DNA of 64,000 nt from positions 256,225 to 320,224 of the forward strand of contig CBDBEG010000052.1 in assembly GCA_965204255.1 (NCBI GenBank), given 5' to 3'. Below are positions 1 through 64,000 of this stretch, in pieces (the first letter of the stretch is position 1; each line of letters opens with the position of its first letter). Source of the DNA: Rubritalea sp. (GTDB lineage Bacteria; Verrucomicrobiota; Verrucomicrobiia; Verrucomicrobiales; Akkermansiaceae). A program made the position numbers and the translations under genes. A model generated the notes under the pieces. That model worked only from the letters and a program-made list of their open reading frames with translations. It searched no databases and was not told the DNA's origin.

Positions 1-447
1 AATGCACGTTCACATATTTCTGCAAAATTTTGTACTTATAGCTACCAACATTATATTGCATTCACCATGGTATATTCTCCAAATTTTTTTGGGATATAGC
101 TACAATGTAACTGTGGAATATAGAGCATGTGGTATGTGCACTTGCTTCCAGCCTCACCCATTTAAAAAAATAATTTCTGTGCATATAGCTGTTCTCAGGT
201 CTCCAAAGTTTCACTTACATGAGATATCAATACATTTTCACTTAGTGCATGTGATGTTTACTGCAAATAACTGCCTAGAAGTAGTATGATTAATCACTCA
301 GAACTATACTGGTCTAACCTAAAATCAAGTATTGGAAATTGCATGATGCAATAAAAACTTACATACCCTGTGAGCATAAGACTAAAATTTGAAATTTTAA
401 CATTTTCAGCAGCTCCTGAAACACATTTTGAGAGTATTCCCATGTTA

Positions 448-454
448 GGGGGGG
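448..454 (+). repeat. Poly-G tract, G7 (U1)
   Basis: The context is catgtta-G7-ctaactcaac. Confidence 0.95.
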
Positions 455-2541: not shown

Positions 2542-3228
2542 ATGATAACCAACTGCTGCAGCATTGTTCTTGGAGTGTTCTTCCTGTTTGCCTGCTCTCT
2601 GCAATGCATTAGTGGCAGCACTTCTCCGGATTCATCCCTAGGAAATGTGGTCCTCTATTCTGTGACAAGAAGTACAAACCTGAATGTCACCCAGTCCATA
2701 AGTCTTGCCAACAACATCATGCAGGGTCTGAAACAAAAGGGAATAAGTGACAATGATTGCTGTGGGTGCAAGAAACGATCGGAAGACTACCTGATTCACC
2801 GATTCAAGACCGATTCACGAAACCCTGACTGCCTGCAAGTCAAGAAGATGCTTGAAGGTAACAATGCATCAGTCTTTGCCGTAACAGCTGACATTAGTTG
2901 TGTAAGGCCTACTTATGACTCTGAGTGCTTCCCAAGCAACAGCAAAGCCTCGTGTTCGTGGAGACAAAGTTTTGAGCCCATCCAGAATGCAAACAGTGAC
3001 ATTTTCCCCAAGTACGCTGTGAATACTGTGTGCAAGGGTTGCAATGAGTATGATTTTGCGTGCATGAATCAGCACAGGCAGTGCTACACCTACAAACAGG
3101 AAGTTGGATTTTATGTCCTGCAGAGAACAAACAGGTGCAGCAGTGATGGGTATGAAGAATGGGTGAGCACCTACACTCGACGGTACCTCAATGCGGCTTG
3201 CAGTTGCCAGTTCCTCCGCCGTGATTAG
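2542..3228 (+). CDS. Secreted Cys-rich protein, paralog A copy 1; IL-17-like cystine-knot C-terminal domain (inferred)
   Basis: Complete 228-aa ORF with signal peptide MITNCCSIVLGVFFLFACSLQCISG and sequons NVT and NAS. Motifs are ASCSW...DIFPKYAVNTVCKGC...AACSCQF. TATATAAA lies 92 bp upstream. Differences from A2 in the mature region are all synonymous (tcc/tct, aaa/aag, gtg/gta, aag/aaa, cag/caa). Confidence 0.8.
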   Translation: MITNCCSIVLGVFFLFACSLQCISGSTSPDSSLGNVVLYSVTRSTNLNVTQSISLANNIMQGLKQKGISDNDCCGCKKRSEDYLIHRFKTDSRNPDCLQVKKMLEGNNASVFAVTADISCVRPTYDSECFPSNSKASCSWRQSFEPIQNANSDIFPKYAVNTVCKGCNEYDFACMNQHRQCYTYKQEVGFYVLQRTNRCSSDGYEEWVSTYTRRYLNAACSCQFLRRD

Positions 3229-4065
3229 TAAAGTAGAATATCTGACCACAATAGTCAGTCATACCTGCAGACTCTAGTCTTTAGTATCATTTATAGCATA
3301 TAATTATCATGTATATAGTTGTAGCAGGTTACAGATCTTGATTGTACACATAGCTATCGTTTAAGAATATGAAATCATTTTGTTAAACAGTGAAGAAATG
3401 TGACCAATCACTTCGAGACGGTTATATGTTCTGTGCAGCAACATGTGACACACTAACAACCACTAGTCTAGCCAAGTTCTTGGAGACAAACACCTGCACT
3501 TCATAGAAAAGACCAAATGTATTCAAAGTTGTCTGAGACACTATAGCTAAGTTCAAATAATTTGCTGCAAATCAGTGCTAAGTTATAAGGTCTACTGATT
3601 TGCTCAACTCTTCATTTCCTCATAGCTACCTTTGACCATGCATTCCAGCTTTCTACAATCTAGTTGTACACATCAACTCATTGTGTGAAGAAAAGGTTGA
3701 AGCTAAATTATAGTCAGGCTCAATGTCTATTGGTGAATATTTTACGCACAATTTACTGGTACTATATCAGTTCTTACATTATGGAAGTTTCTAACGTAGT
3801 TGCGTTAAAAAACCTAGCTACTACTTGAAGAGCTGAATGCAAACCAGGACTCCCAAAGTGGGCTGATTAGTCTTCTGAACTGTCTTCATTCACACCATAC
3901 AAACAGGTAAGTAGCTGGTAGCTTGTGAACTAAGCTGTTAACTATCCCTGCTTCATGCAGGACAAGTATTTACATGCAAGCTGACTGTTTGCAACAGACA
4001 GCAGTACATAACAGTGCAACATATGAACATTACAGAACAATATTTTCGCAGATTAAAACTTATAG

Positions 4066-4166
4066 CAGTCGCGCACGTTTCGCACGAGATCACGTGACAT
4101 GAGCGGGACGAACATGGTCCGGGCACGTGCCCGGCCAGGCCCGGCCTTCGCTACGCCTGTTGCTGT
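4066..4166. repeat. CpG-rich palindromic element (short form) immediately upstream of locus D
   Basis: It contains atcacgtgac and the 12-bp palindrome gggcacgtgccc (4121-4132). It is present in U1-U4 and U6 and absent from U5 (42050-42100). Confidence 0.6.
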
Positions 4167-4221
4167 AATCAACTACTTTCATATGCATTTGAAATCTAAC
4201 ACTCACCTGTATTGATCAAAC

Positions 4222-4983
4222 ATGTCCACCTATAGCTACTGTACTGTTGTAGCTATTCTTCTTGGAGTCGACATTCTATTTGTCTGCTTTCTGCATTGCA
4301 GTATTTTCATCCCTAGGAAATGTTGTCCTCCATCCTATGATAAACTGAAAGTCTTGATGATGACATCGACATCCTGCAGGACATCAATCACAATGACATC
4401 CTTAAGAACATCAACATCCTCAAGCACTTAGGAAATGTGGTCCTCCACTCAGGTTGGGAGCGACATAACTGGAAATCTTGCAGTGACATCCTGCAGGACA
4501 TCAAAAAAACAAGGAAATGTTTTCCCCCCACATTATTCAGGTTGGGACATAACTGAAAGTCCTGACATTAACCTCTTGCAGGACATCAACCAAAAACCCA
4601 AAATATGGTCCCCACACCATTCAGGTTGCCCGGGGACATAACTGAAAGTCTTGACAATGACATCCTCAGCTGCAGGGCATCAAACCACAATGATATCCAC
4701 ATCCTACAAGACATCAACCGAAAGGCAAGGAAATATAGTCCTCCATTCAGGTTGGGACATAACTGAAAGTCCTACAGTGACATCCCACATGCAGGATATC
4801 AACCAAAAAGCAAGGAATATGGTCTTGACGATGACATCTTGCAGGCCCAACATCAACCAAAGTGACAGGAATCACAATACAAGGTTGATAGTAAATTTTG
4901 CGTGGTGTGGTGCAAGGTACATATTGCAGTTAGGATCTAGGGGGCCTGCTTCTCCCAGTGTTTATTGCACATATAGGAGCTAA
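4222..4983 (+). pseudogene. Locus D copy 1: gene A-derived 5' end plus amplified 82-129-bp repeat, no cystine-knot domain
   Basis: The 5' UTR and signal-peptide region aligns to gene A (aacactcacctgta..ATG..ttcttggagt..ctgcaatgca..tccctaggaaatgtggtcctc). The reading frame is broken into 3 ORFs. A 1-bp deletion relative to D2 (gataaactgaaag) changes the product. AATAAA is at 5024-5029. Confidence 0.45.
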
Positions 4984-5433
4984 TGTTAAAATGAAAGGTG
5001 TCTGTGCACATAGCTACCCCTGCAATAAATAATGTCACGTCCATTGCTTCATTTCATTGCCAGTGGCTAAATCTGGCAGCCCAGTTGGAAGGCATGCTTC
5101 AGTATGTAAAACTAATACTGGTGCAGTTTAAACAAGGTGTCAACGATGAACACGATTAACATCTGCTAGACTCTCTCTCTCACTTTTCCAGATGGTGAGA
5201 GATGGACTGGCTTGACATAGGCACTGGCTTGGTGTAGGTTCTGACATAGCGACCTTCCAGCTGCAGAGCAATCTCCCCCTAACTACCAAAACAGAGATGG
5301 CCATATCTGAACTGGGACTCACAGGTAATGGTTCTGGTCTGAATCAAGAAGACTTGAGAACATTCAACCCAAAGATGTAAGAAAAAACATTGCAACCCAA
5401 AATTTTAGGGCATGGTTGTCATTTATCTTTGTA

Positions 5434-5550
5434 TGCGCATGCGCAGTTCCAAAAATGGCCGTGAAAACTTGTCCGCTACCTAAGGTCAGGGTTCGACTAG
5501 TCTCGCGTAGCAATACTCTCGCCGACGTGAGTCTGGCTACGCGAGATTAG
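5434..5550. promoter_or_regulatory. Conserved CpG-rich block: TGCGCATGCGCA palindrome, CCAAAAATGG, 15-bp-stem hairpin
   Basis: tgcgcatgcgca is at 5434-5445 and also at 14809, 23385, 32753, 43679 and 56079. ccaaaaatgg is at 5449-5458. ctagtctcgcgtagc (5497-5511) pairs with gctacgcgagattag (5536-5550). Its function is unknown. Confidence 0.3.
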
Positions 5551-6003
5551 AGTTCGACACACCATGGTTCACACAGGTCAGTTGGGTAAGAATCCTGCAT
5601 GCAGTTATATCATTGCCGTGCATTGCCATGTAAAGTCTTGCATCAAAGCGTTGACCATCTAAAACACGTAGTCTTGTTGACGCCAATTAAGTTTCGCCAT
5701 GCAGATGAGTGAATTAACGCAGGGCAATTTTATTGAGGCTATATCTGTTAGGCTACAGAACTCGCTCCCCCACCCACGCAACTCGACCTCCCGGTCTCCA
5801 CCCCAGATTGAGAACGGAAAACAGTGTTCCGCTTTGCAATTCACTCGTTCTGGCGCAATATCATTTTTCACTTTCTACGACATTATGGGAGGAAGATCTG
5901 AATTCTATGAGAATATTCCCATGCAAACCTTACCGACTTTCCGACTCTGTCAAGCACTGCACCGCTATGCATACAGTGGTTAACGCAAGTCCGAGGCTCT
6001 AGC

Positions 6004-6011
6004 TATAAATA
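6004..6011 (+). promoter_or_regulatory. TATA box of gene B1
   Basis: TATAAATA lies 117 bp upstream of the ATG and is followed by the small palindrome ctgcatgatatgcag. Confidence 0.6.
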
Positions 6012-6120
6012 TCCTATATCTGCATGATATGCAGTCAAACCAACGAGCTACTCCAATCCCACCACCAGTTGTGTCAGAGAAAGAATTACATTACCAATAC
6101 TCTAAGTATCATCAACAGCA

Positions 6121-6777
6121 ATGTATCTAAAATCGTTTATCTTTCTCAGTTTGTGCGCATATTCTCTCATTTCAGCGAATCCAGTCTCTGTCAATTTGAG
6201 CAGCGGTGACACTACGGCGGAACGGCCGACCTCAATTACTGGACTATCAGGTGATCAACCGAAGCCGACCCACACCACGCATAAGCGGCAGGCAGGCGAC
6301 AGTAGTGTAAATTCGGGCGGCGGACCGGACAACCGTCCTGCAAGCGGTACTGCATTATTCAATGCCGTCCAGCTAAACCCTCTCTATGCTCTCTCGGAGA
6401 TGGCAGAACTTAAACATGCCGATGCTATCACTCGCCGCAAACGCCAGCAGACCGGCTCCAATGTAAACGTCATTATACCAAGACAGATTTGCAGTAGTGT
6501 ACTCAGCATTCTGAATGATGACTCCATTCATGTTGCATGCCCGTCTAGCGGACACAACAATGTGTGGTATCAATGCGAATACCAAGAAAATCGAAACCCG
6601 CGTTATTTGATACAGGCTACGAGTTGTCAAACTGATCGGTCATGCGGGAGTCAGTGTCCCACAAATGGACAATGCAGGGACCATAATGCTACTGTGACCA
6701 TTGCAGAACATACCGGAGACTTTACTTGGCGAAGAGTTTCCACTCAGATCAGACTAGGCTGCCAGTGCCGACTCTAG
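6121..6777 (+). CDS. Secreted preproprotein, paralog B copy 1; IL-17-like/neurotrophin-like cystine-knot domain after an RRKR site (inferred)
   Basis: 218-aa ORF with signal peptide MYLKSFIFLSLCAYSLISA and a Pro/Gly/Ser-rich pro-region. RRKR is at residues 105-108 (nt 6433-6444). The following 110-aa domain has 9 Cys and the motifs VWYQCEYQENRNPRYLIQATSC...LGCQCRL. TATAAATA lies 117 bp upstream. Confidence 0.8.
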   Translation: MYLKSFIFLSLCAYSLISANPVSVNLSSGDTTAERPTSITGLSGDQPKPTHTTHKRQAGDSSVNSGGGPDNRPASGTALFNAVQLNPLYALSEMAELKHADAITRRKRQQTGSNVNVIIPRQICSSVLSILNDDSIHVACPSSGHNNVWYQCEYQENRNPRYLIQATSCQTDRSCGSQCPTNGQCRDHNATVTIAEHTGDFTWRRVSTQIRLGCQCRL

Positions 6778-7898
6778 TAGCCAATGAGGTATCAAGTTAG
6801 ATGCTATAGCTAGGGTAGTTTTGAATTTTTATAGCAGGAAGAGAACAGAACTATAGCTGCGGCATTCACTCACTTTTAGATCTATAATTATGCTGTATTA
6901 CTGTGATTATATATACCTTGAACTATATCACTTATGGACGATGACTTTTATGCATGTTTGAAATATTGTTTAATCCGGACAATCATACAGTGGAATCCGA
7001 CACCCCTCAACAGCGGATACCCGCGATATAACGGGCAATTTTGACAGTCTTGACTGTCGCGCGCGCGGTCCCAATTGAACGCAAACAACGCCTAACGAAC
7101 CCAATTTGGCGGACACCTGTCGACCTTTTCATGAAGACTGTCCACCATCGTTGCTGTAGATAACAACTTGACGTTAGATTAGCGCTGTTATTCGTAGTAC
7201 TATAGCCTCTGCTTAGCCTTCCCTGCCAGTGTACAGCAAAGTACAGCTCTGGAAACGCAGCCCCGCGTTGTCACGCTCAACAGCCCGATTACACATACCA
7301 CGCCTACCGCTCGCTGTAATGAACAAAATGTTGGTTCCCAATGGTGTCCGTTATTGTCACTTCCGATAAATCTGACTGCGTGCTGTATTTCCGTTTTTAC
7401 CGCATATATATAGGCAAACTCCGAGACATTTATAGCTTTTTCACAGCGGTATCCGGCCTTAGTGGTCGCGCGCCGTATGGGAATACCAAGGAAGTTCTCT
7501 TTACAAGGTAACATACTGCACCTTGCATGGCCTAACGTAGTAAACACCTTTTCCTGTTCTGATACAATTTAATTTGCACTCCAAGTGGATAGAAAAATTA
7601 TGTAGTAAGGTCTGTGCATGACATTTAGGCTGATCTCCTCCATGCACATATGTGAGTTAATTAAAATGGTGAATTATATACGCACTGACGTTTGAAATAG
7701 CTCAGGATTGTGTTCAAAGTACTTCATTTGAACTTCCTATTAAATACAAGTAGCTATATAACCAAGACAGAAATCATGCGAACTATAAAACTATCTGTAT
7801 ATTGTCACTGCTATCTAATGGCAAACTTACAAGCTAATATATGACAACAATCTATATATAGCTACACTTCTCTCAATACTCCTTTCTAATGGTTGTAG

Positions 7899-8570
7899 CT
7901 ATGATCGGCTGTAGTAACTACATCCGACCACCAGTGTCTCCGTCACTGGTTCCCACGAGTCGAATCCACTTGAATCACACTGCCTTTGCCGCTTCAGAAC
8001 TTTAGCTGTGATGGAAACTGGCGACGAACTGCATGAACATTCACTGCATGCGACATTGACTACAAATCTTGGAAACACATCCTCCCCAAGGTCTTTAATA
8101 TTGTGACTCCAAGTGCACTTTTGTGCAGTATTTTGTGAAAAGCATTGTGAATCATATCGCAAACTTCCATACTCTGTGTTAGTTGTCAGCACACAAGCTG
8201 GAGGTGAGCTGAGATGTGAGTCCGGTAGTGGAACTCTGGTGAGATTAGATCCAGAGACATTGCAGTGTTGGTAATACCGGTCTAGGATGTATGACTCGTT
8301 TCGCTTCTTGCAGTTGTGGCACGGCCCCATCCCTGCTCCTGCCAAACCTCCAGCAATCATGTTAGCCATTGCAGCAGTGTTGATGTTTCCTGTCTGTTGG
8401 ATTGAGAGCCCAGCCACTGCTTGTGCTACAACAACAGAGATGCTGTTGTTGGTGACAGATGATCCTTGTGGTGTGGGCAGTGTGTAGGCTGTGTGCAGAT
8501 GAAATGCACACAGAGCTGCAATGATTAGCAGTTGCATGCTTGCTTGTGTGGTAAACATGATGTTTTTCAC
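7899..8570 (-). CDS. Secreted Cys-rich protein, paralog C copy 1; IL-17-like (inferred), related to A
   Basis: 223-aa ORF with hydrophobic N-terminus MQLLIIAALCAFHLHTAYT and sequons NNS, NES, NVS and NLT. It shares CxxCKKRxExY and DSxCF...CxW with gene A. Motifs are KCTWSHNIKDLGEDVFPRFVVNVACSEC...VVGCSYY. A TATA box lies ~105 bp upstream on the minus strand. Confidence 0.8.
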   Translation of the reverse strand: MKNIMFTTQASMQLLIIAALCAFHLHTAYTLPTPQGSSVTNNSISVVVAQAVAGLSIQQTGNINTAAMANMIAGGLAGAGMGPCHNCKKRNESYILDRYYQHCNVSGSNLTRVPLPDSHLSSPPACVLTTNTEYGSLRYDSQCFSQNTAQKCTWSHNIKDLGEDVFPRFVVNVACSECSCSSSPVSITAKVLKRQRQCDSSGFDSWEPVTETLVVGCSYYSRS

Positions 8571-8672
8571 TCAAGATAGCTTCGAGGCAGATTTGCGATA
8601 AAAGTCTTTATCATTCACGTGCTGTCTCTTGTTGTTGCTGCTAACTGATGACAGTGGTGTTTCCATTCTCTC

Positions 8673-8680
8673 TATAAATA
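8673..8680 (-). promoter_or_regulatory. TATA box of gene C1
   Basis: The plus strand reads tataaata, which is TATTTATA on the coding strand. It lies ~105 bp upstream of the ATG at 8570. Confidence 0.55.
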
Positions 8681-9805
8681 CTGGTGCTGAAGCAGGGATA
8701 GTGTACGACCCTGGTTCAGAGGGACTTGTTCAAGCTACTCATTCGTTTCATAATTCCTAAGGTGTGAATGGATCGAGGGAGTTGAAGAGACCTTCAGCAA
8801 TCAGTGATAGTTTCTCTTTGTCTTATGTAAGGGAATTGCTTACTGAAAGATGTTTTAGGGGTCTATATATTTCATTTTTCAACTCCCAATATGAACCATG
8901 AAGAAATCTTGCAAAATTTGTCCAGTTTCTGTGCCCTGTAAGGCATTCTTTCTTGTTTGTATTCAGCTGTCATGAAATAAGGCTTCACTGAACAATACAA
9001 TGCTATGCAGCCATTAAATATTCTTTCACCACTCTAAAGTATTTGTCATAGTAAACAATGTGGTGTATTCATGCAAGATTGAACGTGAAAGAGTGTTAGT
9101 AGTGCTTGCTCTTGGGGGCAAAGACGTTAAGAAACATTGAATGTATACATTGTGATGAGGTATGGAAGGACTGACAGGGGTGCACAGTTCTTATCACTGA
9201 CTCAATTATGCACTTTATTGTAGTGGCTGCATGATACTGGGCGGAGGTGTGGACATTTCATTTGAGATCTGTATAGCTATTGGTCACACTTGCAGAGAAG
9301 TTCTGGACTTAAATTAATGTTGAGCTAATACTTTAGCAGTTGATGTATTCAGTGTATGTGTATAATGCACGTTCACATATTTCTGCAAAATTTTTGTACT
9401 TATAGTTATATTGCATTCACCATGGTATATTCTCCAAATTTTTTTTGGGATATAGCTACAATGTAACTGTGGAATATAGAGCATATATATGGTATGTACA
9501 CTTGCTTCCAGTCTCACCCATTTAAAAAACCAATTTCTGTGCATATAGCTGTTCTCAGGTCTCCAAAGTTTCACTTACATGAGATATCAATACATTTTCA
9601 GTGCATGTGATGTTCACTGCAAATCACTGCCTAGAAGTAGTATATGATTAATCACTCAGAACCATACTGGTCTAACCTAAAATCAAGTATTGGAAATTGC
9701 ATGATGCAATAAAAACTTACATACCCTATGAGCATAAGACTAAAATTTGAAATTTTAACATTTTCAGCAGCTCCTGAAACACCTTTTGAGAGTATTCCCA
9801 TGTTA

Positions 9806-9828
9806 GGGGGGGGGGGGGGGGGGGGGGG
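9806..9828 (+). repeat. Poly-G tract, G23 (U2)
   Basis: Same flanks as in U1. The length was counted directly. Confidence 0.9.
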
Positions 9829-11818: not shown

Positions 11819-11826
11819 TATATAAA
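11819..11826 (+). promoter_or_regulatory. TATA box of gene A2
   Basis: TATATAAA lies 92 bp upstream of the ATG. Confidence 0.6.
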
Positions 11827-11910
11827 CCCCAAATCTCATGGTCCTCAGCATGGATTACCTTCATTCAAAGAACTTGAAGACAAACACTCATCTGTACTGC
11901 TAATGAAAAT

Positions 11911-15371: not shown

Positions 15372-15379
15372 TATAAATA
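15372..15379 (+). promoter_or_regulatory. TATA box of gene B2
   Basis: TATAAATA lies 117 bp upstream of the ATG. Confidence 0.6.
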
Positions 15380-15488
15380 TCCTATATCTGCATGATATGC
15401 AGTCAAACCAACGAGCTACTCCATTCTCACCACCAGTTGTGTCAGAGAAAGAATTACATTACCATTACTCTAAGTATCATCAACGGCA

Positions 15489-49377: not shown

Positions 49378-49479
49378 TCAAGATAGCTTTGAGGCAGATT
49401 TGCGATAAAAGTCTTTATCATTCACGTGCTGTCTCTTGTTGTTGCTGCTAACTGATGACAGTGGTGTTTCCATTCTCTC

Positions 49480-49487
49480 TATAAATA
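49480..49487 (-). promoter_or_regulatory. TATA box of gene C5
   Basis: Same motif and offset as C1. Confidence 0.55.
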
Positions 49488-52092: not shown

Positions 52093-52100
52093 TATATAAA
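52093..52100 (+). promoter_or_regulatory. TATA box of gene A6
   Basis: TATATAAA lies 93 bp upstream of the ATG. Confidence 0.6.
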
Positions 52101-52185
52101 CACCAAATCTCATGGTCCTCAGCATGGATTGCCTTCATTCTAGGAACTTGAAGACAAACACTCACCCTGTACTGCTGATGAAAAT

Positions 52186-52875: not shown

Positions 52876-53882
52876 TAAAGTAGAATATATTTGTACATCT
52901 GACCACAATGGTTAGTCATACCTGCAGACTCTAGTCTTTAGTATCATTTATAGCATATAATTATCATGTATATAGCCAGTTGTAGCAGGTTACCGATCTT
53001 GATTGTACACATATATTTAAGAATATGAAATCATTTTGTCAAACAGTGAAGAAATCTGACCAATCACCATGCGACTATGCTATATGTTCTGTGCAGCAAC
53101 ATGTGACACACTAGCAACCACCAGTCTAGCCATATTGTTCTTGGAGACAAACATCTGCACTTCATAGAAAAGACCAAATGTATTCAAAATTGTCTGAGAC
53201 ACTATAAGTTCAAATAATTGGGTGCAAATTGCTGAGTAATAAGAGGTCTATTTGCTCAACTCTTCATTTCCTCATACCTTTGACCATGCAGTCCAACTTT
53301 CTACTGAATCTAGTTGTACACATCAACTCATTGTGTGAAAAAAGGTCTTAAATTATAGTCATGATCAATGTCTACTGGTGAATAATTTGCACACAATTTA
53401 CTGGTACTAGCTATATCAGTTCTTACACTCTGATTGAAGTTTCTAACGTAGTTGCGTTTAAAAAAAAACTATACTATTTGAAGAGCTGAATGCAAACCAG
53501 GACTCCCAAAGTGGGCTGGTTAATTGTAGATAGTCTTCTGAACTCTCTTCATTCACACCATGCAAACAGATAAGTAGGTGGTAGCTTGTGAACTAAGCTG
53601 TTCAATATATCCCTGCTTAAGGACCAGTATTTACATGCAAGCTGACTGTTTGCAACAGACAGCAGTACATAACAGTGCAACACATGAACATTACAGTACA
53701 ATATTTTTGCAGATTAAAACTTATAGCAGTCGCGCGCGTTTTGCACGAGATCACGTGACATGAGGGGGACGAACATGGTCCGGGCATGTGCCCGGCCAGG
53801 CCCGGCCTTCGCTACGCCTGTTGCTGTAATCAACTACCTTCATATGCATTCGAAATCAAACACTCACCTGTATTGATCAAAC

Positions 53883-54610
53883 ATGTCCACCTATAGCTAC
53901 TGTACTGTTTTAGCTATTCTTCTTGGAGTTGACATTCTATTTGTCTGCTTTCTGCATTGCAGTATTTTCATCCCTAGGAAATGTGGTCCTCCATCCTATG
54001 ATAAAACTGAAAGTCTTGGTGATGACATCGACATCCTGCAGGACATCAATCACAATGATATCCTTAAGAATATCAACATCCTCAAGCACTTAGGAAATGT
54101 GGTCCTCCACTCAGGTTGGGAGCGACATAACTGAAAATCTTGCAGTGACATCCTGCAGGACATCAAAAAAACAAGGAAATGTTTTCCCCCCACATCATTC
54201 AGGTTCGGACATAACTGAAAGTCCTGATATTGACCTCTTGCAGGACATCAACCAAAAACCCAAAATATGGTCCCCACACCATTCAGGTTACATGCCCGGG
54301 GACATAACTGAAAGTCTTGACAATGACATCCTCAGCTGCAGGGCATCAAACCACAATGATATCTACATCCTGCAAGACATCAACCGAAAAGCAAGGAAAT
54401 ATGGTCCTTCACTCAGGTTGGGACATAACTGAAAGTCCTACAGTGACATCCCACATGCAGGATATCAACCAAAAAGCAAGGAATATGGTCTTGACAATGA
54501 CATCTTGCAGGCCCGACATCAACCAAAGTGACAGGAATCACAATACAAGGTTGATAGTAAATTTGCATGCATGGTGTGGTGCAAGTCTACATATTGCAGT
54601 TAGGATCTAG
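53883..54610 (+). pseudogene. Locus D copy 6a
   Basis: Its N-terminus is of the U1-U4 type (MSTYSYCTVLAILLG...). It is the first member of an intra-unit duplication. Confidence 0.45.
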
Positions 54611-54733
54611 GGGAGCCTGCTTCTCCCATGCAGTGTTTAATGCACGTATAGGAGCTAATGTTAAAATTAAAGGTGTCTGTGCATATAGCTACCCCTGCAA
54701 TAAATAACGTCATGTCCTTTGCTTTAATTATAG

Positions 54734-54903
54734 CAGTGGCGTAGCCAGGTCATTGGTATTGGCCGGGCACCTGCTGTACGCTAGCCGCTCACGTGCGTTT
54801 CGCACGAGATCACGTGACATGAGCGGGACGAATAACATCGAACATGATGCTTTTGACCAGGCACGTGCCCGGCCAGGCCCGGCCTTCGCTACACCTGATG
54901 CTG
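54734..54903. repeat. CpG-rich palindromic element (long form, MITE-like)
   Basis: The 5' end cagtggcgtagccagg...ggccgggcac pairs imperfectly with the 3' end gtgcccggcc...ccttcgctacacctgatgctg. The short forms lack ~70 bp of the 5' part. Confidence 0.5.
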
Positions 54904-54960
54904 TAATCAACTACCTTCATATTGCATTTGAAATCTAACACTCACCTGTACTGATCAAAC

Positions 54961-55677
54961 ATGTCCACCTACTGTTCTGTTGTAGCTACTCTTCTTGGAG
55001 TCGACATTCTGTTTGTCTGCTCAGTTTCTGCACTGTGTACTTTGGAAATGTGGTCCTCCATCCTATGACAAAACTGAAAGTCTTGATTATGACATCGACA
55101 TCCCGCAGAACATCAATCACAATGACATCAACAACACCCTTAAGAACATCAACATCCTCAAGAACTTAGGAAATGTGGTCCTCCACTCAGGTTGGGAGCG
55201 ACATAACTGAAAATCTTGCAGTGACATCCTGCAGGACATCAAAACAAACAAGGAAATGTTTCCCCCACATCATTCAGGTTCGGACATAACTGAAAGTCCT
55301 GACATTGGCCTCTTGCAGGACATCAACCAAAAACCAAAAATATGGTCCCCACACCATTCAGGTTGCCCGGGGACATAACTGAAACCACAATGATATCCAC
55401 ATCCTGCAAGACATCAACCAAAAAGCAAGGAAATATGGTCCTCCATTCAGGTTGGGACATAACTGAAAGTCCTACAGTGACATCCCACATGCAGGATATC
55501 AACCAAAAAGCAAGGAATATGGTCTTGACGATGACATCTTGCAGGCCCGACATCAACCAAAGTGACAGGAATCACAATACAAGGTTGATAGTAAATTTTG
55601 CGTGGTGTGGTGCAAGGTACATATTGCAGTTAGGATCTAGGGGGGCCTGCTTCTCCCAGTGTTTAATGCACATATAG
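54961..55677 (+). pseudogene. Locus D copy 6b
   Basis: Its N-terminus is of the U5 type (atgtccacctactgt...). It is the second member of the ~1-kb duplication in U6. Confidence 0.45.
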
Positions 55678-56309
55678 GAGCTAATGTTAAAATTAAAGGT
55701 GTCTGTGCATATAGCTACCCCTGCAATAAATAACGTCACGTCCATTGCTTCATTTCATTGCCAGTGGCTAAATCTGGCAGCCCAGTTGGAAGGCATGCTT
55801 CAGTATGTAAAACTAATACTGGTGCAGTTTAAACAAGGTGTCAACTATGAATACTATTAACATCTGCTAGACCCTCTCTCACTTTTCTGGATGGTGAGAG
55901 ATGGACTGGCTTGATAGACTAGCTATGGCAAGGCACGAGCACAAGTTACAGCTCGGTTCAGCTGCGCAAGTGCAAAAAGTGCGTTAATCATTGTCATGTA
56001 GGGGCGCATGCACAGTATGGTGTAAGAAAAAACATTGCAACCCAAAATTTTAGGGCATGGTTGTCATTTTTTTTTGTCTGCGCATGCGCAGTTCCAAAAA
56101 TGACCGGTCCGCTACCTAAGGTCAGGGTTCGACTAATGTCGCGTAGCCATACTCTCGCCGTGAGTCTGGCTACGCGAGACTATAGGGTTCGACATGGTTC
56201 ATACAGGTCAGTTGGGTAAGAATCCTGCATGGCATCTGCATGCAGTAATAGTCATTGTCGTGCATGGCCATGTAAAGTCAAAGCGTTGACCATCTAAAAC
56301 ACGTAGTCT

Positions 56310-56763
56310 AGTCGATCTATGACTGTAGCTATAGCGATGCCGGACGTTCAAAACTTCTTTCATAAAGCGCTAGCTGTGATCTTTGCAAAAGTTCAATATC
56401 TATACTTCAAAAGAAGTTTCGGTGAGCTCTATCGAGTGATACCACTTTCCAGTTGCGCATGCAATGTATGCGGAATCGTTTTAATTTTTTCCCATACAAA
56501 CTTCCATTGAACAAAAATGTAAATGCGCTCCGCTTGTACTGCACCGATTTCTATTTGTAAGACACAAATATCTGCGTGAACACCAGTCAATGGGACAAAC
56601 TGTGGTATAACTTTCCAGTAGTTATGCGAAGTCATTCTGGAGAACGAGCTGTTTCTTTCAAAAAGGTCTATGACCAAAGTCAGAACGTTTTCACGGCATA
56701 GGATCGCTAAAATTAAGCTGGGAGTCACTGTTATAGCGATTTCGCTATGGCCGCAATACGCGT
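56310..56763. other. U6-private ~450-bp insertion of unknown nature
   Basis: It interrupts the conserved sequence aaacacgtagtct / acgccaagtttcgccc. I recognise no domain in its 123-aa minus-strand ORF. Confidence 0.5.
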
Positions 56764-57075
56764 ACGCCAAGTTTCGCCCAGATGAGTGAACGCAGGGCAA
56801 TTTTAATGAGGCTATATCTGTTGGCTACAGAACTCGCTTCCTCTCCCACGCAACTCGACCTCCCAGTCTCGACCCCAGATTGAGAACGGAAAACAGCGTT
56901 ACGCTTTGCAATTCACTCGTTCTGGCGCAATATCATTTTTCACTTTATACGACATCATGGGAAGAAGATCTTAATTCTATGAGAATATTCCCATGTAAAC
57001 CTTACCGACTTTCCGACTCTGTCCAACACTGCAACGCTATACATACAGTGGTTAACACAAGTCCGAGGCTCTTGC

Positions 57076-57083
57076 TATAAATG
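57076..57083 (+). promoter_or_regulatory. TATA box of gene B6
   Basis: TATAAATG lies 110 bp upstream of the ATG. Confidence 0.5.
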
Positions 57084-57185
57084 TCCTACCTGCATTAGAT
57101 GCAGTCAAACCAGCGAGCTACTACAATCGCACCACCAGTTGTGTCAGAGAAAAAATTACCAATACTCTAAGTATCATCAACAGCA

Positions 57186-57839
57186 ATGTATCTAAAGTCG
57201 ATTATCGTTCTTTTGTGCGCATATTCTCTCATTTCAGCGAAGCCAGTCTCTGTCAATTTGAGCAGGGGTGACACTACGGCGGAACGGCCGACCTCAATTA
57301 TTGGACTATCAGGTGATCAACCGAAGCCGACCCACACCACGCATAAGCGGCAGGCAGGCGACAGTAGTGTAAATTCGGGCGGCGGATCGGACAACCGTCC
57401 TGCAAGCGGTACTGCATTATTCAATGCCGTCCAGCTAAACCCTCTCTATGCTCTCTCGGAGATGGCAGAACTTAAACATGCCGATGCTATCTCTCGCCGC
57501 AAACGCCAGCAGACCGGCTCCAATGCAAACGTGGTCATACCAAGACAGATTTGCAGTAGTGTACTTAGCACTTTGAATGATGACTCCATTCATGTTGCAT
57601 GCCCGTCTAGCGGACACAACAATGTGTGGTATCAATGCGAATACCAAGAAAATCGAAACCCGCGTTATTTGATACAGGCTACGAATTGTCAAACGGATCG
57701 GTCATGCGGGAGTCAGTGTCCCACAAATGGACAGTGCAGAGACCATAATGCTACAGTGACCATTGCAGAACATACCGGGGACTTTACTTGGCGAAGAGTT
57801 TCCACTCAGATCAGACTAGGCTGCCAGTGCCGACTCTAG
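57186..57839 (+). CDS. Paralog B copy 6
   Basis: 217-aa ORF. It shares B1-type variants (AVQLNP, SSVLS, DHNATV) and has private changes. Confidence 0.8.
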   Translation: MYLKSIIVLLCAYSLISAKPVSVNLSRGDTTAERPTSIIGLSGDQPKPTHTTHKRQAGDSSVNSGGGSDNRPASGTALFNAVQLNPLYALSEMAELKHADAISRRKRQQTGSNANVVIPRQICSSVLSTLNDDSIHVACPSSGHNNVWYQCEYQENRNPRYLIQATNCQTDRSCGSQCPTNGQCRDHNATVTIAEHTGDFTWRRVSTQIRLGCQCRL

Positions 57840-58704
57840 TAGCCAATGAGATATCAGATGCTATAGCTATGGTAGTTTTGAATTGTTATAGCAGGAAGAG
57901 AACAGAACTATAGCTGCGGCATTCAGTCACTTTTAGATCTATATGCTGTATTACTGTGATTATATATACCTTGAACTATATCACTGGCTTATGGACGATG
58001 GCTTTTAATTCATTATGCATGTTTGTAATATTGTTTAATCCGGACAATCATACAGTGGAATCCGACACTCCTCAACAGCGAATACCCGCGATATAACAGA
58101 CAATTTTGACAGTCTTGACTGTCCGCGGTCCCAATTGAACGCAAACAACGCCTAACGAACCCAATTTGGCGGACACCCGTCGACCTTTTCATGAAGACTG
58201 TCCACCATTGTTGCTGTAGATAACAACTTGACATTAGATTAGCGCTGTTATTCGTAGTACTATAGCTTCTGCTTAGCCTTCCCTGACAACGTACAGCAAA
58301 GTACAGCTCTGGAAACGCAGCCCCGCGTTGTCACGCTTAACAGCCCGATTGCACATACCACGCCTTCCGCTCGCTGTAATGGACAAAATGTTGGTTCCCA
58401 ATGGTGTCCGTTATATAGAGGTGTTCCAATATATTGCCACTTCCCATAAATCTGACTGCGTGCTGTATTTCCGTATTTACCGCATATATAGGCAAACTCC
58501 GCGACATTTATAGCTTTTTCATAGCGATATCCGGCCTTAGTAGTCGCGCGCCGTTATGGGAATGAATACCAAAGAAGTTCTCTTTACAAGGTAAAACATA
58601 ATGTACCTTGCATGGCCTAACGTAGTAAGTACCTTTTCCTGTTCTGATACTTTAATTTGCCCTCCAAGTGGAATGAAAAATTATGTAGTAAGGTCTGTGC
58701 ATGA

Positions 58705-58871
58705 ACAATCAACGAACCACACCTCCCTTATAAAACAGGCCTAGATGTTATGCAAAGTCACCCACTGCGCAGGACGCGTTTCGGCCAATACCAGGCCTCA
58801 TCAGCTGCGCTGGGGTGACCGGGAGATGGGGACTGCTATAATATCATGCGTAGAATGCAGTCAGGTGGCTG
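58705..58871. mobile_element. U6-private 167-bp insertion with candidate 6-bp TSD (possible SINE/MITE)
   Basis: The host sequence gtgcatga|catttagg is interrupted. gcatga occurs on both sides (58699-58704 and 58872-58877). An internal hairpin pairs gtcacccactgcgcag (58757-58772) with ctgcgctggggtgac (58805-58819). Confidence 0.45.
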
Positions 58872-59158
58872 GCATGACATTTACTGATCTCCTCCATGCA
58901 CACATGTGAGGTAATTAAAATGGTGAATTAGCTATATACGCACTGACGTTTGAAATAGCCCAGGATTGTGTTCAAAGTTCTTCATTTCAACTTCCTATTA
59001 AACTAGTACATGTAGCTATACAACTAAGACAGAAATCATGCGAACTATAAAACTATCTGTATATTGTCACTGCTATCTAATGGCAAACTTACAAGCTAAT
59101 ATATGACAACAATCTATATATAGCTACACTTCTCAATACTGCTTTCTAATGGTTATAG

Positions 59159-59390
59159 CTATGATCGGCTGTAGTAACTACATCCGACCACCAGTGTCTC
59201 CCTCACTGGTTCCCACGAGTCGAATCCACTTGAATCACACTGCCTTTGTCGCTTCAGAACCTTAGCCCTGATGGAAACTGGCGACAAACTGCATGAACAT
59301 TCACTGCATGCGACATTGACTGCAAATCTTGGAAACACATCCTCCCCGAGGTCTTTAATATTCTGACTCCAAGTGCACTTTTGTGCAGCA
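59159..59390 (-). pseudogene. Gene C copy 6, 5'-truncated remnant (C-terminal ~76 codons)
   Basis: Homology to gene C ends at ...cacttttgtgcagca (59390). It is joined directly to agattgaacatgaaag, which lies ~0.5 kb upstream of the gene C ATG in other units. The start codon, signal peptide and TATA box are deleted. Confidence 0.85.
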
Positions 59391-59670
59391 AGATTGAACA
59401 TGAAAGGGTGTATAATGCTTGCTCTTGGGGGCAAAGAGATTAAGAAACATTCAGAATGTATATGGGAGGACTGACAGGGGTGCACAGTTCTTATCATTGA
59501 CTCAATTATGCACTTTATTGTTTATATTAGTGGCTGCATGATACTGGGCGGAGGTGTGGACATTTCATTTGAGATCTGTATAGCTATTGGTCACACTTGC
59601 AGAGAAGTTTTGGACTTAAATTAATATTGAGCTAATACTTTAGCAATTGATGTATTCAGTGTATGTGCAT

Positions 59671-62600
59671 AATGCACATTCATATATTTGAGCAAAATTA
59701 TACAAACTTATAGCTACCAACATTATATTGTGGGTATATTCTCCAAATTTTTTTGGTATATAGCTACAATGTAACTGCACAATATAGAGCGTATGGTATG
59801 TACACTTGCTTCCAGTCTCACCCATTTTTAAAAATTTCTGTGCATATAGCTGTTCTCAGGTGTCCAAAGTTTCACTAGCATGAGAGATCAATATATATTG
59901 ACTGCAAATCACTGCCTAGAAGTAGTATATGATTAATTAGTGTCATATCTTCTGCCTTTAGAGTCTAATAACTATAAGTAGTATAGGCATGTAGCTAGTG
60001 TAATGAGTGTGTGGCATGGTTGAGTTTACACACTATAGGTATTAGGTATTGGGGTGGTACTGACTTACAGTGTATAATATAGGAGAATGTAGAATATTGC
60101 AGGGGAAAGGGGTGCTGAAGCACCCGTTGTGGGGTGAGCAATAACAGCAATATTGCATGGCTAGCTAAAGCTACATCAGTGCATAGTTCCAGATCTGATA
60201 GGCCATGCATATAGCTGGCAGGAATTGTCATTCCTTATGGCCACAAGAATGACTGAAGCCTGTCAACTAATGAATGAGTTATGGATTCACCAGGAATCAC
60301 TCCATTTCATTCCATAGCTATACATACTATAAAAGTGAAACAGCTAGGTATCAATGCATTTTCATCATTCACATTCAGGAATTCAACAGGTACATACCTA
60401 TCCTACTAAATATTAATTCTACTACCAAGTAAGGTTTGCATATGGGTATTTTCAGTCAAACTGGGAACAGTGGGAAGAAGAACTGCTTCTTGTATATGAA
60501 GTTGAAAACAATGAAAGGGACCACATGTTTATGGACACTTGTAAGTAATTACGTTTTTCTTTTTTTTTTTTTCTATAAAAATTCTTGCATTAGTTGCAAA
60601 GGGTACACAATATAGCTGTACAATAGCTAATTTTGCATGTATGCCCAAAGGTTAGATTTAAAGGATGATACAGAAGTAGGTAAAGGTACATGTGCAGTAA
60701 ACTTATTCCAATTATGAATGGTACGGGGTACAAAGGAATTATTAAAGCTACTTGTATGTGCATGTGGACAAACAAAGAGATGGTGAGACTGTGACCTTGT
60801 GACTCTGGGAGTTTGCTCTACAAAAATGCCAGTGGGAAAGTGAAAGAGCCCTTGTACTATTTTAAACATGGTACATAAGTACAGGTATAATCTGCATTGC
60901 TGTAGTGTTGGTAGAAAGCACAACTGCAGTAGATCATTATAACTGCTGTTCCACTGCTTTGTACACATTCTTAAAGCAAATTTTTGCACACCCTCCAGGG
61001 AATTTATTTCTCCAGTCTTGTAGGTGTTCCAGACTTGACTTGCGTACTCAAGATGGGGATGAACAAGTGAGATGTACATCTGGAGTAGGCTCTCCGGGCT
61101 AGAACACTGATAGAAACGACGGTAAATCAGGCCTGTTAGCTTTCTTGCCTTACCACAGATTGATTGTATATGCTGTGACCATGATAGGTCTGATGACAAG
61201 AGGATCCCAAGATATTTGTAGGAGTTCACCTCTTGCAGTGGCTCACGACAGAGGTACAATGTTGGTGGGCAGACACCAGTTCGTTTTCTAGTCACCCGCA
61301 TGAAATTACACTTTTGAATGTTAAATTGTAAGTAATTAGCATCAACCCACTCTGATATCTTGTTGATATCTTCTTGCAAATGGGCATAGTCAGCACTGTT
61401 AGAAATGGGTCGGTAGAGCAGCATGTCATCCGCATATAAAGTTAGGTGACTGTTAGATGAGAGGGTAATAGATGTAATCCCATCGATGTATAACAGAAAT
61501 AACAGTGGCCCGAACACTGATCCTTGTGGGACGCCAGACAACACAGGGAGAGTGTTTGACGAACTGCCACCCACTACCACCTGCTGCTTCCTGTCAGAAA
61601 GGTAACTGTAAATCCATTTTACAAGTAACTGGTTGACTTGCAAATCCTCTAGCTTTCCTATCAGGGCACGGTGAGGAACTGAGTCGAATGCCTTCTTAAA
61701 GTCGAAAAACACTGCACCAACTTCACTTCCTGTTTCAAGTATTTCAAACCAATTATGAGTGGTGTCCAGTAGGGCAGTGATTGTGGACTTTCCACTCTGG
61801 AATCCCCACTGTGAAGCAAAAATTGGTTGTGTCACCATCAGATGTTGTAATACTAGGTTAGCGATGTGTTTCTCCAGAAGTTTGCTCAACACTGGCAATA
61901 GCGAAATTGGCCTGTAGTTAGTGGGATTTCCTTTGTCGCCAGATTTGGGAATGGGTACAATGTTGGATTGTTTCCACATTGTTGGGAAGCAGCCAGTGGA
62001 GATTGATTTGTTGAAGAGTTTAGTGACCGGGGTAACAATGCTTGTTGCAGTGGCTTTTAACATCCTACCAGAGATTTGATCCTGGCCGCTAGCTTTAGAA
62101 ACGTCAATATTTTGAAGAAGATCCAAAACATCATCCTCTGTGCATAAGAGATGTTCTTGGCTTCCCTCCAGCAAATGCAGGTGTTCTGCAGACTCATAGG
62201 GGCCAGACAAAGGAGGCAGTGATGTGTTGAAACAATTAGAGAAATGATTATTCAACATGTTTGCTTTGTCCAAGTCATTGTCAGCACATCTGTCACCTAA
62301 CTGCAGTGTGGGAATTGTTGATTGTTCTTTCCTGAGATACTTCATTGTCTTCCAAAATTGCTTTTTGTTTCCACTATTGATGTTTCTTGCAAAGAATGAC
62401 TGTTTGGAGTTTTTCAATATAGATGTAACTTTATTTCGCATTCTTTTGTATTTTCTCCACAGCTCAGTTGACCCTGATGACCTTGCTCTTCTGAATAAGC
62501 TGTTCCATTTTTGCATTGCATGTTTTAAGTTTTTTGATAACCATGGAAGATTTTTAATTATGTCTTGGTAGAGTGCACTTTGGGATACACTCATCCATGA

Positions 62601-64000
62601 TAGTCATGAAAGTGTCATCCCAGTTTTGTAGAGCTTGGTTTACATCAGGGCAGTCCAGCAGTTGATCCCAGTCGGCCTCGGCCAGTAATTCATTAGCTTT
62701 GTCAAAAGTCAGCATGGGAGTATTTCCATATTGTCCGTGCAGTTTGTTTGGTGGAGTTGGGTGGAAGCTTCCAGTTCCATTTAAGGAGAAGACCGTTATG
62801 GTCGGAGTTAGCAATGGGTGGTATAATTGAGCATTCCTTTAACTGTGCGGGGGTGGATAACAGTGCAATGTCAATTAAAGATTTCCTGCCACTGCTGGAG
62901 CTGTGTGTAGTACCTTGCACGACCTGCGTTAAGGAAAATAGTTGCATGAGGCTGGTGAGTATTCCTTTATATACACGACATACATGCACACACTTTTGCC
63001 TTTAGTATCTCTTTAATAAAGCCATCAAGTGCAAAAGTTGCACTGGAACTGCAGGTTTGGTCACAATTGATTAAACCTGTCCGTTGCATGGTCTCCCTCT
63101 GATTGTAGCCCATAAAGCTTTATATGTGTACAGTACCTCAAGTAGTGATTGCAGTGCAACTCAGCTTTTCATTCATGTTCAAATTAATTTTTTGGTATTT
63201 TTTCTGGTTGTCTGAGAATCAGCTAATAACTGTATAGCTATGATGAAAGCCTTTATACACTTGATTGATGAAATAACTGATCGACTGCCAAGTTAACATG
63301 TAAATGATGAGAAGTCATGCTTATTAGTACAAATCAACAATGTGTTTATTATGATTGTCTCTGATACTTCATAATCTCTTCATTAGCTTCATAGGTACTG
63401 CTGGCAGCAAGTAGAGGGTGTATGTATGCATATATGCATGCTGATTAGTTGCAACTTCATTGAGTAAAACTAGTCTTATGCCCAGACTCAACTCTCCCGT
63501 GAGGAAAAACAGTCTTGTGATCCAAGTCAACTTCCTTGGGCTAGTGTGTAGCTATAGTGTAACCTGGAAAAGTCCAAACCTCTTTGCACCACACTCACTC
63601 AAACACTGTTTGGATACCCAACTTGAGATGCAAAGCTCATTGCTGCATGTAAGGAAAGAGCTACAGAACATTTAATAATTTCTCAAATCCAATGGCCCAA
63701 GAAATTTGACTTTGTCCAGCAGATTGGTTTCTTGCTGGGAGGCACATGTGGGCTGGGCATGAGACGAGAGTAAAACGTACCAGCTGAAAAAACCAACTGA
63801 ATATCAAATTGAAAAGTCAAGATACTCTCTGAACAGTTCTGTTTCAAAATTCATTCATAGTGAGAAGGGTTTTGACAATCTATAGGGAACCACCTAATAT
63901 TCTATAGAGAGTCCTCTGAAATGTTAATTGTTCTATTCAGCATAATGATTCACACCTAACAAACTTCATAAATGATGTGCTCTGGATTCCATCATGAATG
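59671..64000. repeat. Partial tandem unit U7 (upstream part only, with LINE insertion)
   Basis: Collinear with 50160-52030 of U6 apart from the LINE at 60556-62966. The window ends before the gene A TATA box. Confidence 0.85.
60556..62966 (-). mobile_element. 5'-truncated non-LTR retrotransposon (end of APE endonuclease plus RT, CR1/L2/Jockey-like)
   Basis: A T-rich tail lies at 60554-60572. The 655-aa ORF has FFDFKKAFDSVPH, LYADDMLLY, YKYLGI and LVHPHLEYASQVWN. An upstream frame has ANSDHNGL, an endonuclease C-terminal SDH motif. It is private to U7 and inserted between attacgtt and atatacacga. Confidence 0.9.

Follow-up and report, generated by a model that had tools for sequence, protein, structure and literature searches.

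The 64,000-nt stretch analyzed here (the window: positions 256,225 to 320,224 of contig CBDBEG010000052.1 in assembly GCA_965204255.1, filed under Rubritalea sp.) was found to consist of about 6.8 head-to-tail copies of a gene-bearing unit of ~9.37 kb. Each unit carries three genes in the order A(+), B(+), and C(−). The best explanation, with a probability of roughly 0.75 for structure and family, is an array of ~9.4-kb cassettes with three predicted secreted IL-17-like cystine-knot ligand genes. An immune-cytokine role of A, B, and C is suggested by analogy, and the chances for and against it are about even. The window is most likely part of a gene cluster in the nuclear genome of an animal, a non-chordate invertebrate host present in a long-read 'metagenome'.

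Structure of the Tandem Array

The window was compared with itself by BLAST. The long matches were all on the plus strand at offsets that were multiples of ~9.4 kb, and no large inverted match appeared in this comparison. High-scoring segment pairs of 5.6–15 kb were obtained at offsets 9363, 9369, 8580, 17951, and 27309 with 96.9–98.8% identity and E = 0. They included pairs of 15,040 bp (98.4%, offset 17,951), 7,095 bp (97.3%, offset 9,363), 6,174 bp (98.2%, offset 9,369), and 5,648 bp (98.8%, offset 8,580). Unit 4 (20490–29859, 9370 bp), which runs from one gene A start up to the next, was used as the reference unit, and BLAST with this unit tiled the entire window. The parallel diagonals at ~9.4 kb and the tiling supported the ~6.8-copy head-to-tail array proposed in an earlier note on this DNA.

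The gene A starts listed in the earlier note (2542, 11911, 20490, 29860, 40755, and 52186) and its gene B starts (6121, 15489, 24065, 33433, 46923, and 57186) all matched the open reading frame (ORF) list and tblastn. The spacings of 9369, 8579, 9370, 10895, and 11431 bp follow from the gene A starts. The note had described two genes per unit; A and B were correct, and the third gene, C, on the minus strand had been overlooked. The first bases of the window had been reported to recur at 9364, 27310, 50160, and 59671, and BLAST gave 9364, 27310, ~50150, and ~59670. On the reference unit, window base 1 falls at position 6821. Units 3 and 5 have lost this position to deletions and for that reason were missing from the earlier list.

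All units are on the plus strand. Unit 1 (1–2541) is partial and holds the tail of the C-to-A spacer (reference-unit positions 6821–9370), with 95.8% identity to the reference. Unit 2 (2542–11910, 9369 bp) has intact A, B, and C and is 98.3% identical to unit 4, in which the three genes are also intact. Unit 3 (11911–20489, 8579 bp) has intact A and B, and its C is cut by a fragment of a long interspersed nuclear element (LINE). Unit 5 (29860–40754, 10895 bp) has intact A, B, and C, a 2.36-kb LINE insertion, and a spacer deletion of ~850 bp. Unit 6 (40755–52185, 11431 bp) is a mosaic. Unit 7 (52186–64000) continues beyond the window end and contains intact A and B, the last 76 codons of C, and a LINE insertion. 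Units 2–5 were mutually 96.8–98.8% identical, and units 6 and 7 were at 79–94% in places. The earlier division into near-identical units 2–4 and diverged units 5–7 did not hold as a simple split; the divergence was mosaic.

The array had also been described as leaving the window at both ends. On the right this was correct: the array extends by at least one more unit (unit 8), giving at least 8 units in total. In this right flank, B8 and C8 are intact, and gene A of unit 8 (window-equivalent 64148–64678) is a pseudogene with a frameshift after ~123 codons. On the left, the homogeneous array stops ~1.7 kb outside the window. It is followed by ~3.7 kb of unrelated DNA and then by an older B paralog with 76% nucleotide identity. 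This older paralog encodes 236 aa, lies ~5.5–6.2 kb left of window base 1, and carries a 'GQEVG..CNLGNY' insert as in related taxa; its TATA box is the same as that of the array B genes.

Copy Number and Comparison Contigs

The window was 99.9% identical, where aligned, to contig ctg22188_37x_l (2.3 Mb) of ENA ERZ25068400. This contig had ~9.9 kb more between shared anchors, equal to one extra unit. Gene C was intact in its unit 3, compared with the LINE-truncated C in the window (window 16425–17392 vs. contig 14515–16022). The difference between the window and ctg22188 reflects either two alleles, two assemblies of one locus, or assembly uncertainty. In contig ctg21881_32x_l, from the same sample as ctg22188, the type-I units numbered only two, with the A229 and A231 types after them. 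The number of type-I units therefore differs between assembled haplotypes (~2, 4, and 5). A 37,448-bp 'circular' contig (ERZ25766727 ctg335641_0x_c) consisted of exactly four ~9.36-kb units at '0x' coverage. Most likely, the assembler cycled through the array and so produced this contig, which may alternatively represent extrachromosomal circular DNA derived from the array. The A(+)-B(+)-C(−) triplet array was also found in two related taxa (ERZ19489113 and ERZ26050812) with a spacing of ~10.5–11 kb. Synonymous divergence (dS) between the window genes and their orthologs in these taxa was 0.18–0.36.

Some of these results could be produced by an assembly artefact of a repeat-rich locus, affecting the repeat structure or at least the copy number. 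The window and ctg22188 differ by about one unit in spite of their near-identity, and a four-unit circle at '0x' is what assemblers typically generate when they cycle through tandem repeats. An artefact is nevertheless highly improbable. The units can be told apart by private single-nucleotide differences, indels, and three different LINE insertions, and the array turned up separately in two haplotype contigs (at 32x and 37x) as well as in further samples and related taxa. These private markers and independent recoveries also disfavor the assembly duplication that the earlier note had named as the finding that would overturn its array.

Host Genome

The window had 41.9% G+C and a CpG observed/expected ratio of 0.48 with an excess of TpG/CpA. 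Scans of the window for tRNA genes and Rfam families gave nothing. The CpG depletion, the absence of tRNA and Rfam matches, and the LINE reverse transcriptase ORFs with poly(A) tails point to a methylated eukaryotic nuclear genome. Bacterial and archaeal genome contigs were scanned for contaminating host DNA, and no relatives were found in them. The C-S-W third disulfide of gene A, described below, argues for a non-chordate source.

Genes A, B, and C

The ORFs of genes A, B, and C are intronless and encode 217–229 aa (A 228–229, B 217–218, and C 219 from ATG). Each product has a hydrophobic, signal-peptide-like N-terminus and a Cys-rich C-terminal domain. The products are predicted to be secreted and may function as dimeric ligands. 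The window contains six intact A, six intact B, and four intact C genes, and two further C copies are truncated.

Gene A is on the plus strand and encodes a predicted secreted IL-17-like cystine-knot protein. It was located in unit 2 (2542–3228), unit 3 (11911–12597), unit 4 (20490–21176), and unit 5 (29860–30546), each with 228 aa. The copies in unit 6 (40755–41444) and unit 7 (52186–52875) are type-II variants of 229 aa, with 92% and 87% amino acid identity to A4, respectively. Gene B, also on the plus strand, encodes a predicted secreted proprotein with a Cys-rich C-terminal domain. It was located in unit 2 (6121–6777, 218 aa), unit 3 (15489–16142, 217 aa), unit 4 (24065–24718, 217 aa), unit 5 (33433–34089, 218 aa), unit 6 (46923–47576, 217 aa), and unit 7 (57186–57839, 217 aa). 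An invariant RRKR site (furin site) lies ~110 residues from the C-terminus of B.

Gene C is on the minus strand and is a paralog of A (26% identity, E 6e-12). Intact copies of 219 aa were located in unit 2 (7899–8558), unit 4 (25844–26503), unit 5 (37578–38237), and unit 6 (48706–49365). The remnant in unit 3 (17156–17380) is the N-terminal part only, and its reading frame continues into the LINE fragment to give the ORF 16529–17392. The remnant in unit 7 (59162–59389) contains only the last 76 codons. In this genome, every C copy terminates in 'VGCSYYSRS', and its knot loop is shortened by an 8-residue deletion, with the loss of two cysteines. The C orthologs in related taxa retain both cysteines ('VGCGCY', 'CSGCKPTDHSCNC'). 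The altered cysteines may indicate a re-wired disulfide pattern or early functional decay.

Family Assignment

Homologs of the array genes were few in a database of 5.8 billion proteins, and almost all came from ENA long-read assemblies. An exhaustive profile search gave 74 representative clusters of relatives. The AlphaFold model of A had a predicted local distance difference test score (pLDDT) of 85–93 over an all-beta C-terminal domain. Foldseek with this model placed IL-17F/A on top (probability 0.93–0.97), followed by PDGF, Noggin, AMH, and Spatzle, and all structural matches of significant probability were cystine-knot ligands.

The relatives were scanned with Pfam, for which the gathering cut-offs are 24 bits for IL17 (PF06083) and 24.1 bits for Noggin (PF05806). 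IL17 was matched by 17 of the 70 relatives scanned (best E 3e-15, up to 57 bits), and Noggin by 16 of them (best E 2.4e-6). The core relatives matched IL17 only: P0047 scored 28.1 bits, above the cut-off, and P0056 and P0036 scored 21 and 18.9 bits. P0047 also matched the profile of the core A/C family (E 3e-29), and thus bridges this profile and Pfam IL17. The peripheral relatives included strong IL-17s (54–57 bits) and a group that matched the C-terminal third of the Noggin model.

Profiles were compared by hhalign with IL-17 and Noggin-like sets that were drawn from the A/C profile's own matches and are therefore biased toward finding links. On this basis, the core A/C profile was linked to five verified IL-17s (38–57 bits) at 98.5% (E 2.4e-15, 133 columns) and to the Noggin-scoring group at 99.3% (E 4.9e-20), and the verified IL-17s were linked to the Noggin-scoring group at 94.9% (E 4.4e-8). 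The superfamily profile aligned with human IL-17A, whose sequence was checked against PDB, at E 3.5e-4. The hallmark motifs S-x-W, (F/Y)P..C..GC, vL(k/r)R..C, and the terminal C-x-C were in register.

Gene A showed the cysteine and motif pattern of IL-17, which consists of (C/S)-x-W, (F/Y)P...C-x(2-4)-C, one internal Cys, and C-x-C at the end. Its C138-S-W, FPKY..C164-x2-C167, C181, and C220-x-C222 were in register with human IL-17A and with invertebrate IL-17s. Gene C lacked the last cysteine of the pattern (GCSYY vs. GCGCY) and one loop cysteine, and B showed the pattern in part. The invertebrate-type third knot disulfide was kept by gene A, with C-S-W at the position of chordate S-P-W; this disulfide is retained in non-chordate IL-17s and replaced by S-P-W in chordates (PMC4517768). 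The N-terminal motif 'C-x-x-RS-(E/D)-DYL' was common to the A/C family and the verified IL-17s. The 'KKR' of A and C is part of a conserved motif flanked by cysteines, and mature IL-17s have this motif as well.

Membership in the cystine-knot superfamily was supported for A by the model and its structural matches, for C by its paralogy to A, and for B by hhalign only (89%, E 2.3e-6 against the broad superfamily profile). The results indicated that A and C form a family of cystine-knot ligands that is unannotated and lies between IL-17 on one side and the Noggin-like and PTTH-Trunk-like ligands on the other; IL-17 is the best single label for this family. B is weakly placed as a more distant, putatively furin-processed member of the superfamily.

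Several results weigh against this assignment. When A, B, C, and the spacer ORFs were scanned with Pfam, no family was matched even at E ≤ 1, IL17 and Noggin included, and one B homolog reached only E 0.13 for IL17. No meaningful match to a PDB sequence was obtained, whether the query was A, B, or C itself or a profile (that of B or of the core A/C family). The Foldseek E values were only 3e-3 to 1e-1 with template modeling (TM) scores of 0.40–0.48, and PDGF, Noggin, AMH, and Spatzle were interleaved with IL-17F/A. The core A/C profile was slightly nearer to the Noggin/PTTH-like group than to the verified IL-17s, so the label 'IL-17' may be too narrow. The link of B to the verified IL-17s was weak (only 57%, E 1e-4), and B gave no signal against human IL-17A by hhalign. 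The structure model of B was of low quality (pLDDT 49), and a fold search with it returned only non-significant matches. Gene C lacks the two cysteines kept by its orthologs and evolves faster. The NF-kB consensus GGGRNWYYCC had 0 sites against 2.4 expected, which gives no support to the idea of NF-kB regulation. AATAAA and ATTAAA were absent within 800 bp 3' of the A and B stops (e.g., 21177–21976 and 24719–25518). The 3' ends of the A and B transcripts may thus be unusual or use a variant signal. In gene C, an AATAAA/ATTAAA signal was found ~300–330 nt past the stop.

Part of this evidence would fit another reading, in which A, B, and C are Noggin-like or PTTH-Trunk cystine-knot ligands with a developmental or neuroendocrine function, amplified here, and are not IL-17 cytokines. 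The core A/C profile matched the Noggin-scoring relatives best. The broad profile matched the Bombyx PTTH structure 5aoq (E 3.7e-5), with 'DLGE..(F/V)PRF', then 'vLKR', and the terminal C-x-C in common. The relative P0099 scored 28 bits, above the Pfam Noggin cut-off, and B has the conserved RRKR proprotein-convertase site. Cleavage sites of the RRKR type are typical of PTTH and Trunk, which act via the Torso receptor tyrosine kinase, and are not typical of IL-17. However, P0099 was the only relative above the Noggin cut-off, its match was limited to the C-terminal knot (model positions 129–205 of 211), and Noggin matches were confined to peripheral relatives, with none among the core relatives. 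The core-only profile did not match PTTH. Foldseek placed IL-17F/A first and Noggin ninth, and PTTH was not in the top 50. The N-terminal motif shared with the verified IL-17s is a further point against this reading. Developmental ligands are usually low-copy and do not form polymorphic arrays of eight or more copies. A Noggin-like or PTTH-Trunk identity is unlikely, though it has the best claim among the alternatives to an IL-17-like family.

The three pairwise profile links (A/C with IL-17, A/C with the Noggin group, and IL-17 with the Noggin group) were all significant. On these grounds, A, B, and C might belong to an unrecognized ancient cystine-knot branch that directly bridges IL-17 with the Noggin-like and PTTH-Trunk ligands and was co-amplified as a dosage-tunable cytokine module. 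This is doubtful, with the odds well against it. Such a bridging family may occur in an animal lineage, such as sponges or other holobiont hosts, from which IL-17-type cytokines have not been described. The three paralogs may have been co-amplified because they act together, e.g., as heteromeric ligands or as ligand and antagonist.

Selection and Promoters

The ratio of nonsynonymous to synonymous differences was calculated between copies (pN/pS) and against more distant homologs (dN/dS). Across all informative copy pairs within the window, pN/pS was 0.05–0.47. Against the related-taxon orthologs, dN/dS was 0.27–0.43 for A and 0.57–0.72 for C, and it was 0.20 for B4 against the old flanking B paralog. 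The three genes are under purifying selection, which is clear for A and B.

These values bear on a further alternative, that the genes encode secreted effectors of another kind (toxin, antimicrobial, adhesive, reproductive protein, or pheromone) on a cystine-knot scaffold, with the array serving bulk production. Small Cys-rich secreted proteins in amplified arrays with fast turnover would be expected in that case, the cytokine activity of A, B, and C is suggested by analogy, and gene C shows relaxed constraint and altered cysteines. The clear purifying selection on A and B argues against this alternative, as does the homology to ligand families (IL-17, Noggin-like, and PTTH) over 130–140 columns that include non-cysteine motifs. 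It is considered improbable, and predicted IL-17-like ligands remain the preferred reading.

The proximal promoter and 5' untranslated region of gene A (plus strand; 20325–20489 in unit 4) were near-invariant across the three taxa. The 165 bp upstream of A had 89% column identity across these taxa, compared with ~83% for the coding sequence. The TATA box of A, TATATAAA (20398–20405 in unit 4), was at −92 in every unit. The TATA box of gene B (plus strand; 23948–23953 in unit 4) was at −117 from the ATG; all units share this conserved element, as do two related taxa and the old flanking B paralog. The A promoter block upstream of the TATA box also contains GGATTCC, AAAGTGAAGT, and TCAGTCA elements. 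They are loosely like Rel, IRF, and AP-1 half-sites, and none of them matched a strict consensus.

Probable Concerted Evolution of the Array

In neighbor-joining trees built from every A, B, and C coding sequence, the copies grouped by genome. Synonymous divergence (pS) among copies within one array ranged from 0.007 to 0.14. Unit 6 differed in identity to unit 4 along its length: the A half was 87–94% identical, and the B-C block was 98.4–99.3% identical. This mosaic requires sequence exchange between units.

The earlier note had left the array as either young or actively homogenized. A simply young array would be the product of a very recent amplification of a single cassette in this lineage and of separate amplifications in the related taxa, and no homogenization would be under way. 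Units 2–5 differ by only 1–3%, as expected for a young array. The clustering of copies by genome also counts against homogenization to some degree, because it could also be produced by independent recent re-amplification in each lineage. Simple youth is nonetheless quite unlikely. A multi-unit triplet array is present in three taxa, the divergence within one array covers a wide range of pS, the unit 6 mosaic needs exchange between units, and the unit number differs between haplotypes. Of the two possibilities, homogenization and turnover are favored by the shared triplet array, the by-genome clustering, and the mosaic identity.

Taken together, the shared ancestral array, the by-genome clustering, the mosaic tracts, and the copy-number differences point to ongoing unequal crossing-over, gene conversion, and birth-and-death. 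The head-to-tail arrangement, by-genome similarity, exchange tracts, and copy-number variation expected of a tandem array under concerted evolution were all found. The ~9.4-kb cassette of three divergent paralogs is present in at least 8 head-to-tail copies, and each gene is predicted to encode a secreted protein of ~220 aa with a C-terminal cystine-knot ligand domain whose nearest affinity is to IL-17. The cassette is older than the species. The recombination mechanism itself is deduced from sequence patterns and would operate as follows. Misaligned units would allow unequal crossing-over and gene conversion to add, delete, and homogenize copies, and LINE insertions, deletions, and frameshifts would kill single copies, combining birth-and-death with concerted evolution. 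The likely pay-off would be a high and rapidly inducible dosage, with some diversity, of secreted signaling ligands. By analogy with the sea-urchin and mollusc IL-17 arrays, these ligands may act in epithelial or innate-immune responses.

Insertions, Deletions, and Repeats

The irregular unit spacing had been attributed to private indels and transposable element insertions. This proved correct: three LINEs, a minisatellite-bearing insertion, and deletions were mapped. The three LINE insertions are independent, all on the minus strand, and belong to three families that are 41–46% identical at the protein level. Each is 5'-truncated with a poly(A) tail. The fragment in unit 3 (16425–17216), with poly-T at its left edge, replaces 1.3 kb of the unit and has 46% amino acid identity to the unit 7 LINE. 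The unit 5 LINE (34900–37258) has an RVT_1 domain, and unit 8, beyond the window end, carries the same insertion. The unit 7 LINE (60556–62947) has a 655-aa ORF with an RVT_1 domain. One LINE insertion common to units 5 and 8 indicates that blocks were duplicated after that insertion. Within the unit 5 LINE, a perfect 41-bp tandem duplication (35522–35607) splits the ORF into 35158–35691 and 35532–36923. The unit 8 copy has a single continuous ORF of 548 aa, which places the 41-bp duplication later than the block duplication.

A 2.55-kb insertion (44254–46805) is private to unit 6 and contains a 60-bp minisatellite and a 236-aa ORF. The minisatellite (44583–46055) has ~24 copies with a 95% match. 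Long ORFs over it (44524–46077; 517 aa on the minus strand) were rejected as spurious, since they are repeat-derived on both strands. The adjoining 236-aa ORF (46093–46803, minus strand) has a C-x2-C...H-x3-C motif and gave no Pfam match; this ORF may represent the terminal part of a retroelement of unclassified type. The remaining spacing differences were accounted for by several deletions seen in the BLAST with the reference unit.

An 84-bp tandem repeat was found in the A-B spacer of every unit (22412–22616, 31781–31985, 42387–42590, and 55200–55524). It has 2.4 copies per unit and 3.8 in unit 7, and the region could be aligned at ~72–75% in the related taxa. Two spacer ORFs (13595–14351 and 14974–15370) were considered as extra genes and rejected, because they overlap the 84-bp repeat, have no family matches, and show only neutral-level conservation across taxa (~72–75%).

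Comparison with Known Systems

The closest described system is in the sea urchin, where eight SpIL17-1 genes lie in 59.8 kb and are acutely induced by Vibrio in the gut epithelium (PMC5457136). Both clusters are lineage-specific and consist of head-to-tail secreted IL-17-family genes, and the scale is similar, with ~7.5 kb per gene in the urchin. The SpIL17-1 unit has one gene type with two exons that is Pfam IL17-positive, whereas the unit here is a cassette of three paralogs on both strands, intronless and Pfam-negative. The units here are 97–99% identical with mosaic exchange.

Tandem duplications of IL-17 genes, of the same or different isoforms, have been reported in mussel, scallop, octopus, sea urchin, and acorn worm; 11 IL-17 genes were reported in a coral, and none were found in the sponge Amphimedon (PMC8353272). 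The IL-17s of molluscs, echinoderms, hemichordates, and corals have the third-disulfide cysteine at 'C-P-W', consistent with C-S-W in A and C-T-W in C (PMC8353272, PMC4517768). The number of exons in marine-invertebrate IL-17s is variable and includes genes with zero introns, as in the intronless A, B, and C (PMC8353272, PMC4517768). Most of the marine repertoires described consist of diverged genes in scattered tandem duplications, in contrast to the near-identical, higher-order cassette array found here. The A, B, and C proteins are also far more divergent, with ≤25–30% identity to the verified IL-17s.

The PTTH/Trunk and Noggin-like ligands (5aoq, PF05806) share with the array genes the knot block 'W..DLG..(F/V)PR(F/Y)v...C ... 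vLKR ... C-x-C', and B resembles PTTH/Trunk in having a putative prodomain with a dibasic cleavage site. The array genes differ from PTTH and Noggin in that the core profile misses PTTH and the Noggin model is matched in its C-terminal third only, by peripheral relatives only.

PTTH/Trunk and Noggin-like ligands are typically low-copy. Multi-gene head-to-tail units with concerted evolution, unequal exchange, and variable copy number are found in the early histone repeats of sea urchins and in ribosomal DNA. The present array resembles these in having several genes per unit, a higher similarity within the genome than between species, and copy-number variation. Histone and ribosomal DNA arrays contain hundreds of housekeeping copies, whereas ~8–10 copies of ligand genes are present here, with visible birth-and-death (the frameshifted A8 and the truncated C).

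Tandem IL-17-type arrays are thus already known in marine invertebrates. The new feature is a near-identical cassette of three paralogs, intronless and invisible to Pfam. The unit of amplification is this cassette and not a single gene. Since the family is invisible to Pfam, current surveys probably undercount such genes. Concerted evolution, birth-and-death, and copy-number variation between haplotypes can all be read directly from this one locus. Tandem IL-17 expansions are thought to underlie fast and strong mucosal immunity in marine invertebrates. The profile-level link of IL-17 with Noggin-like and PTTH/Trunk-like ligands bears on the origin of IL-17 cytokines. If the host were an early-branching animal, the significance of the locus would be greater. 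If A, B, and C were a bridging branch, the array would be a cytokine module of tunable dosage whose uniformity is maintained through concerted evolution.

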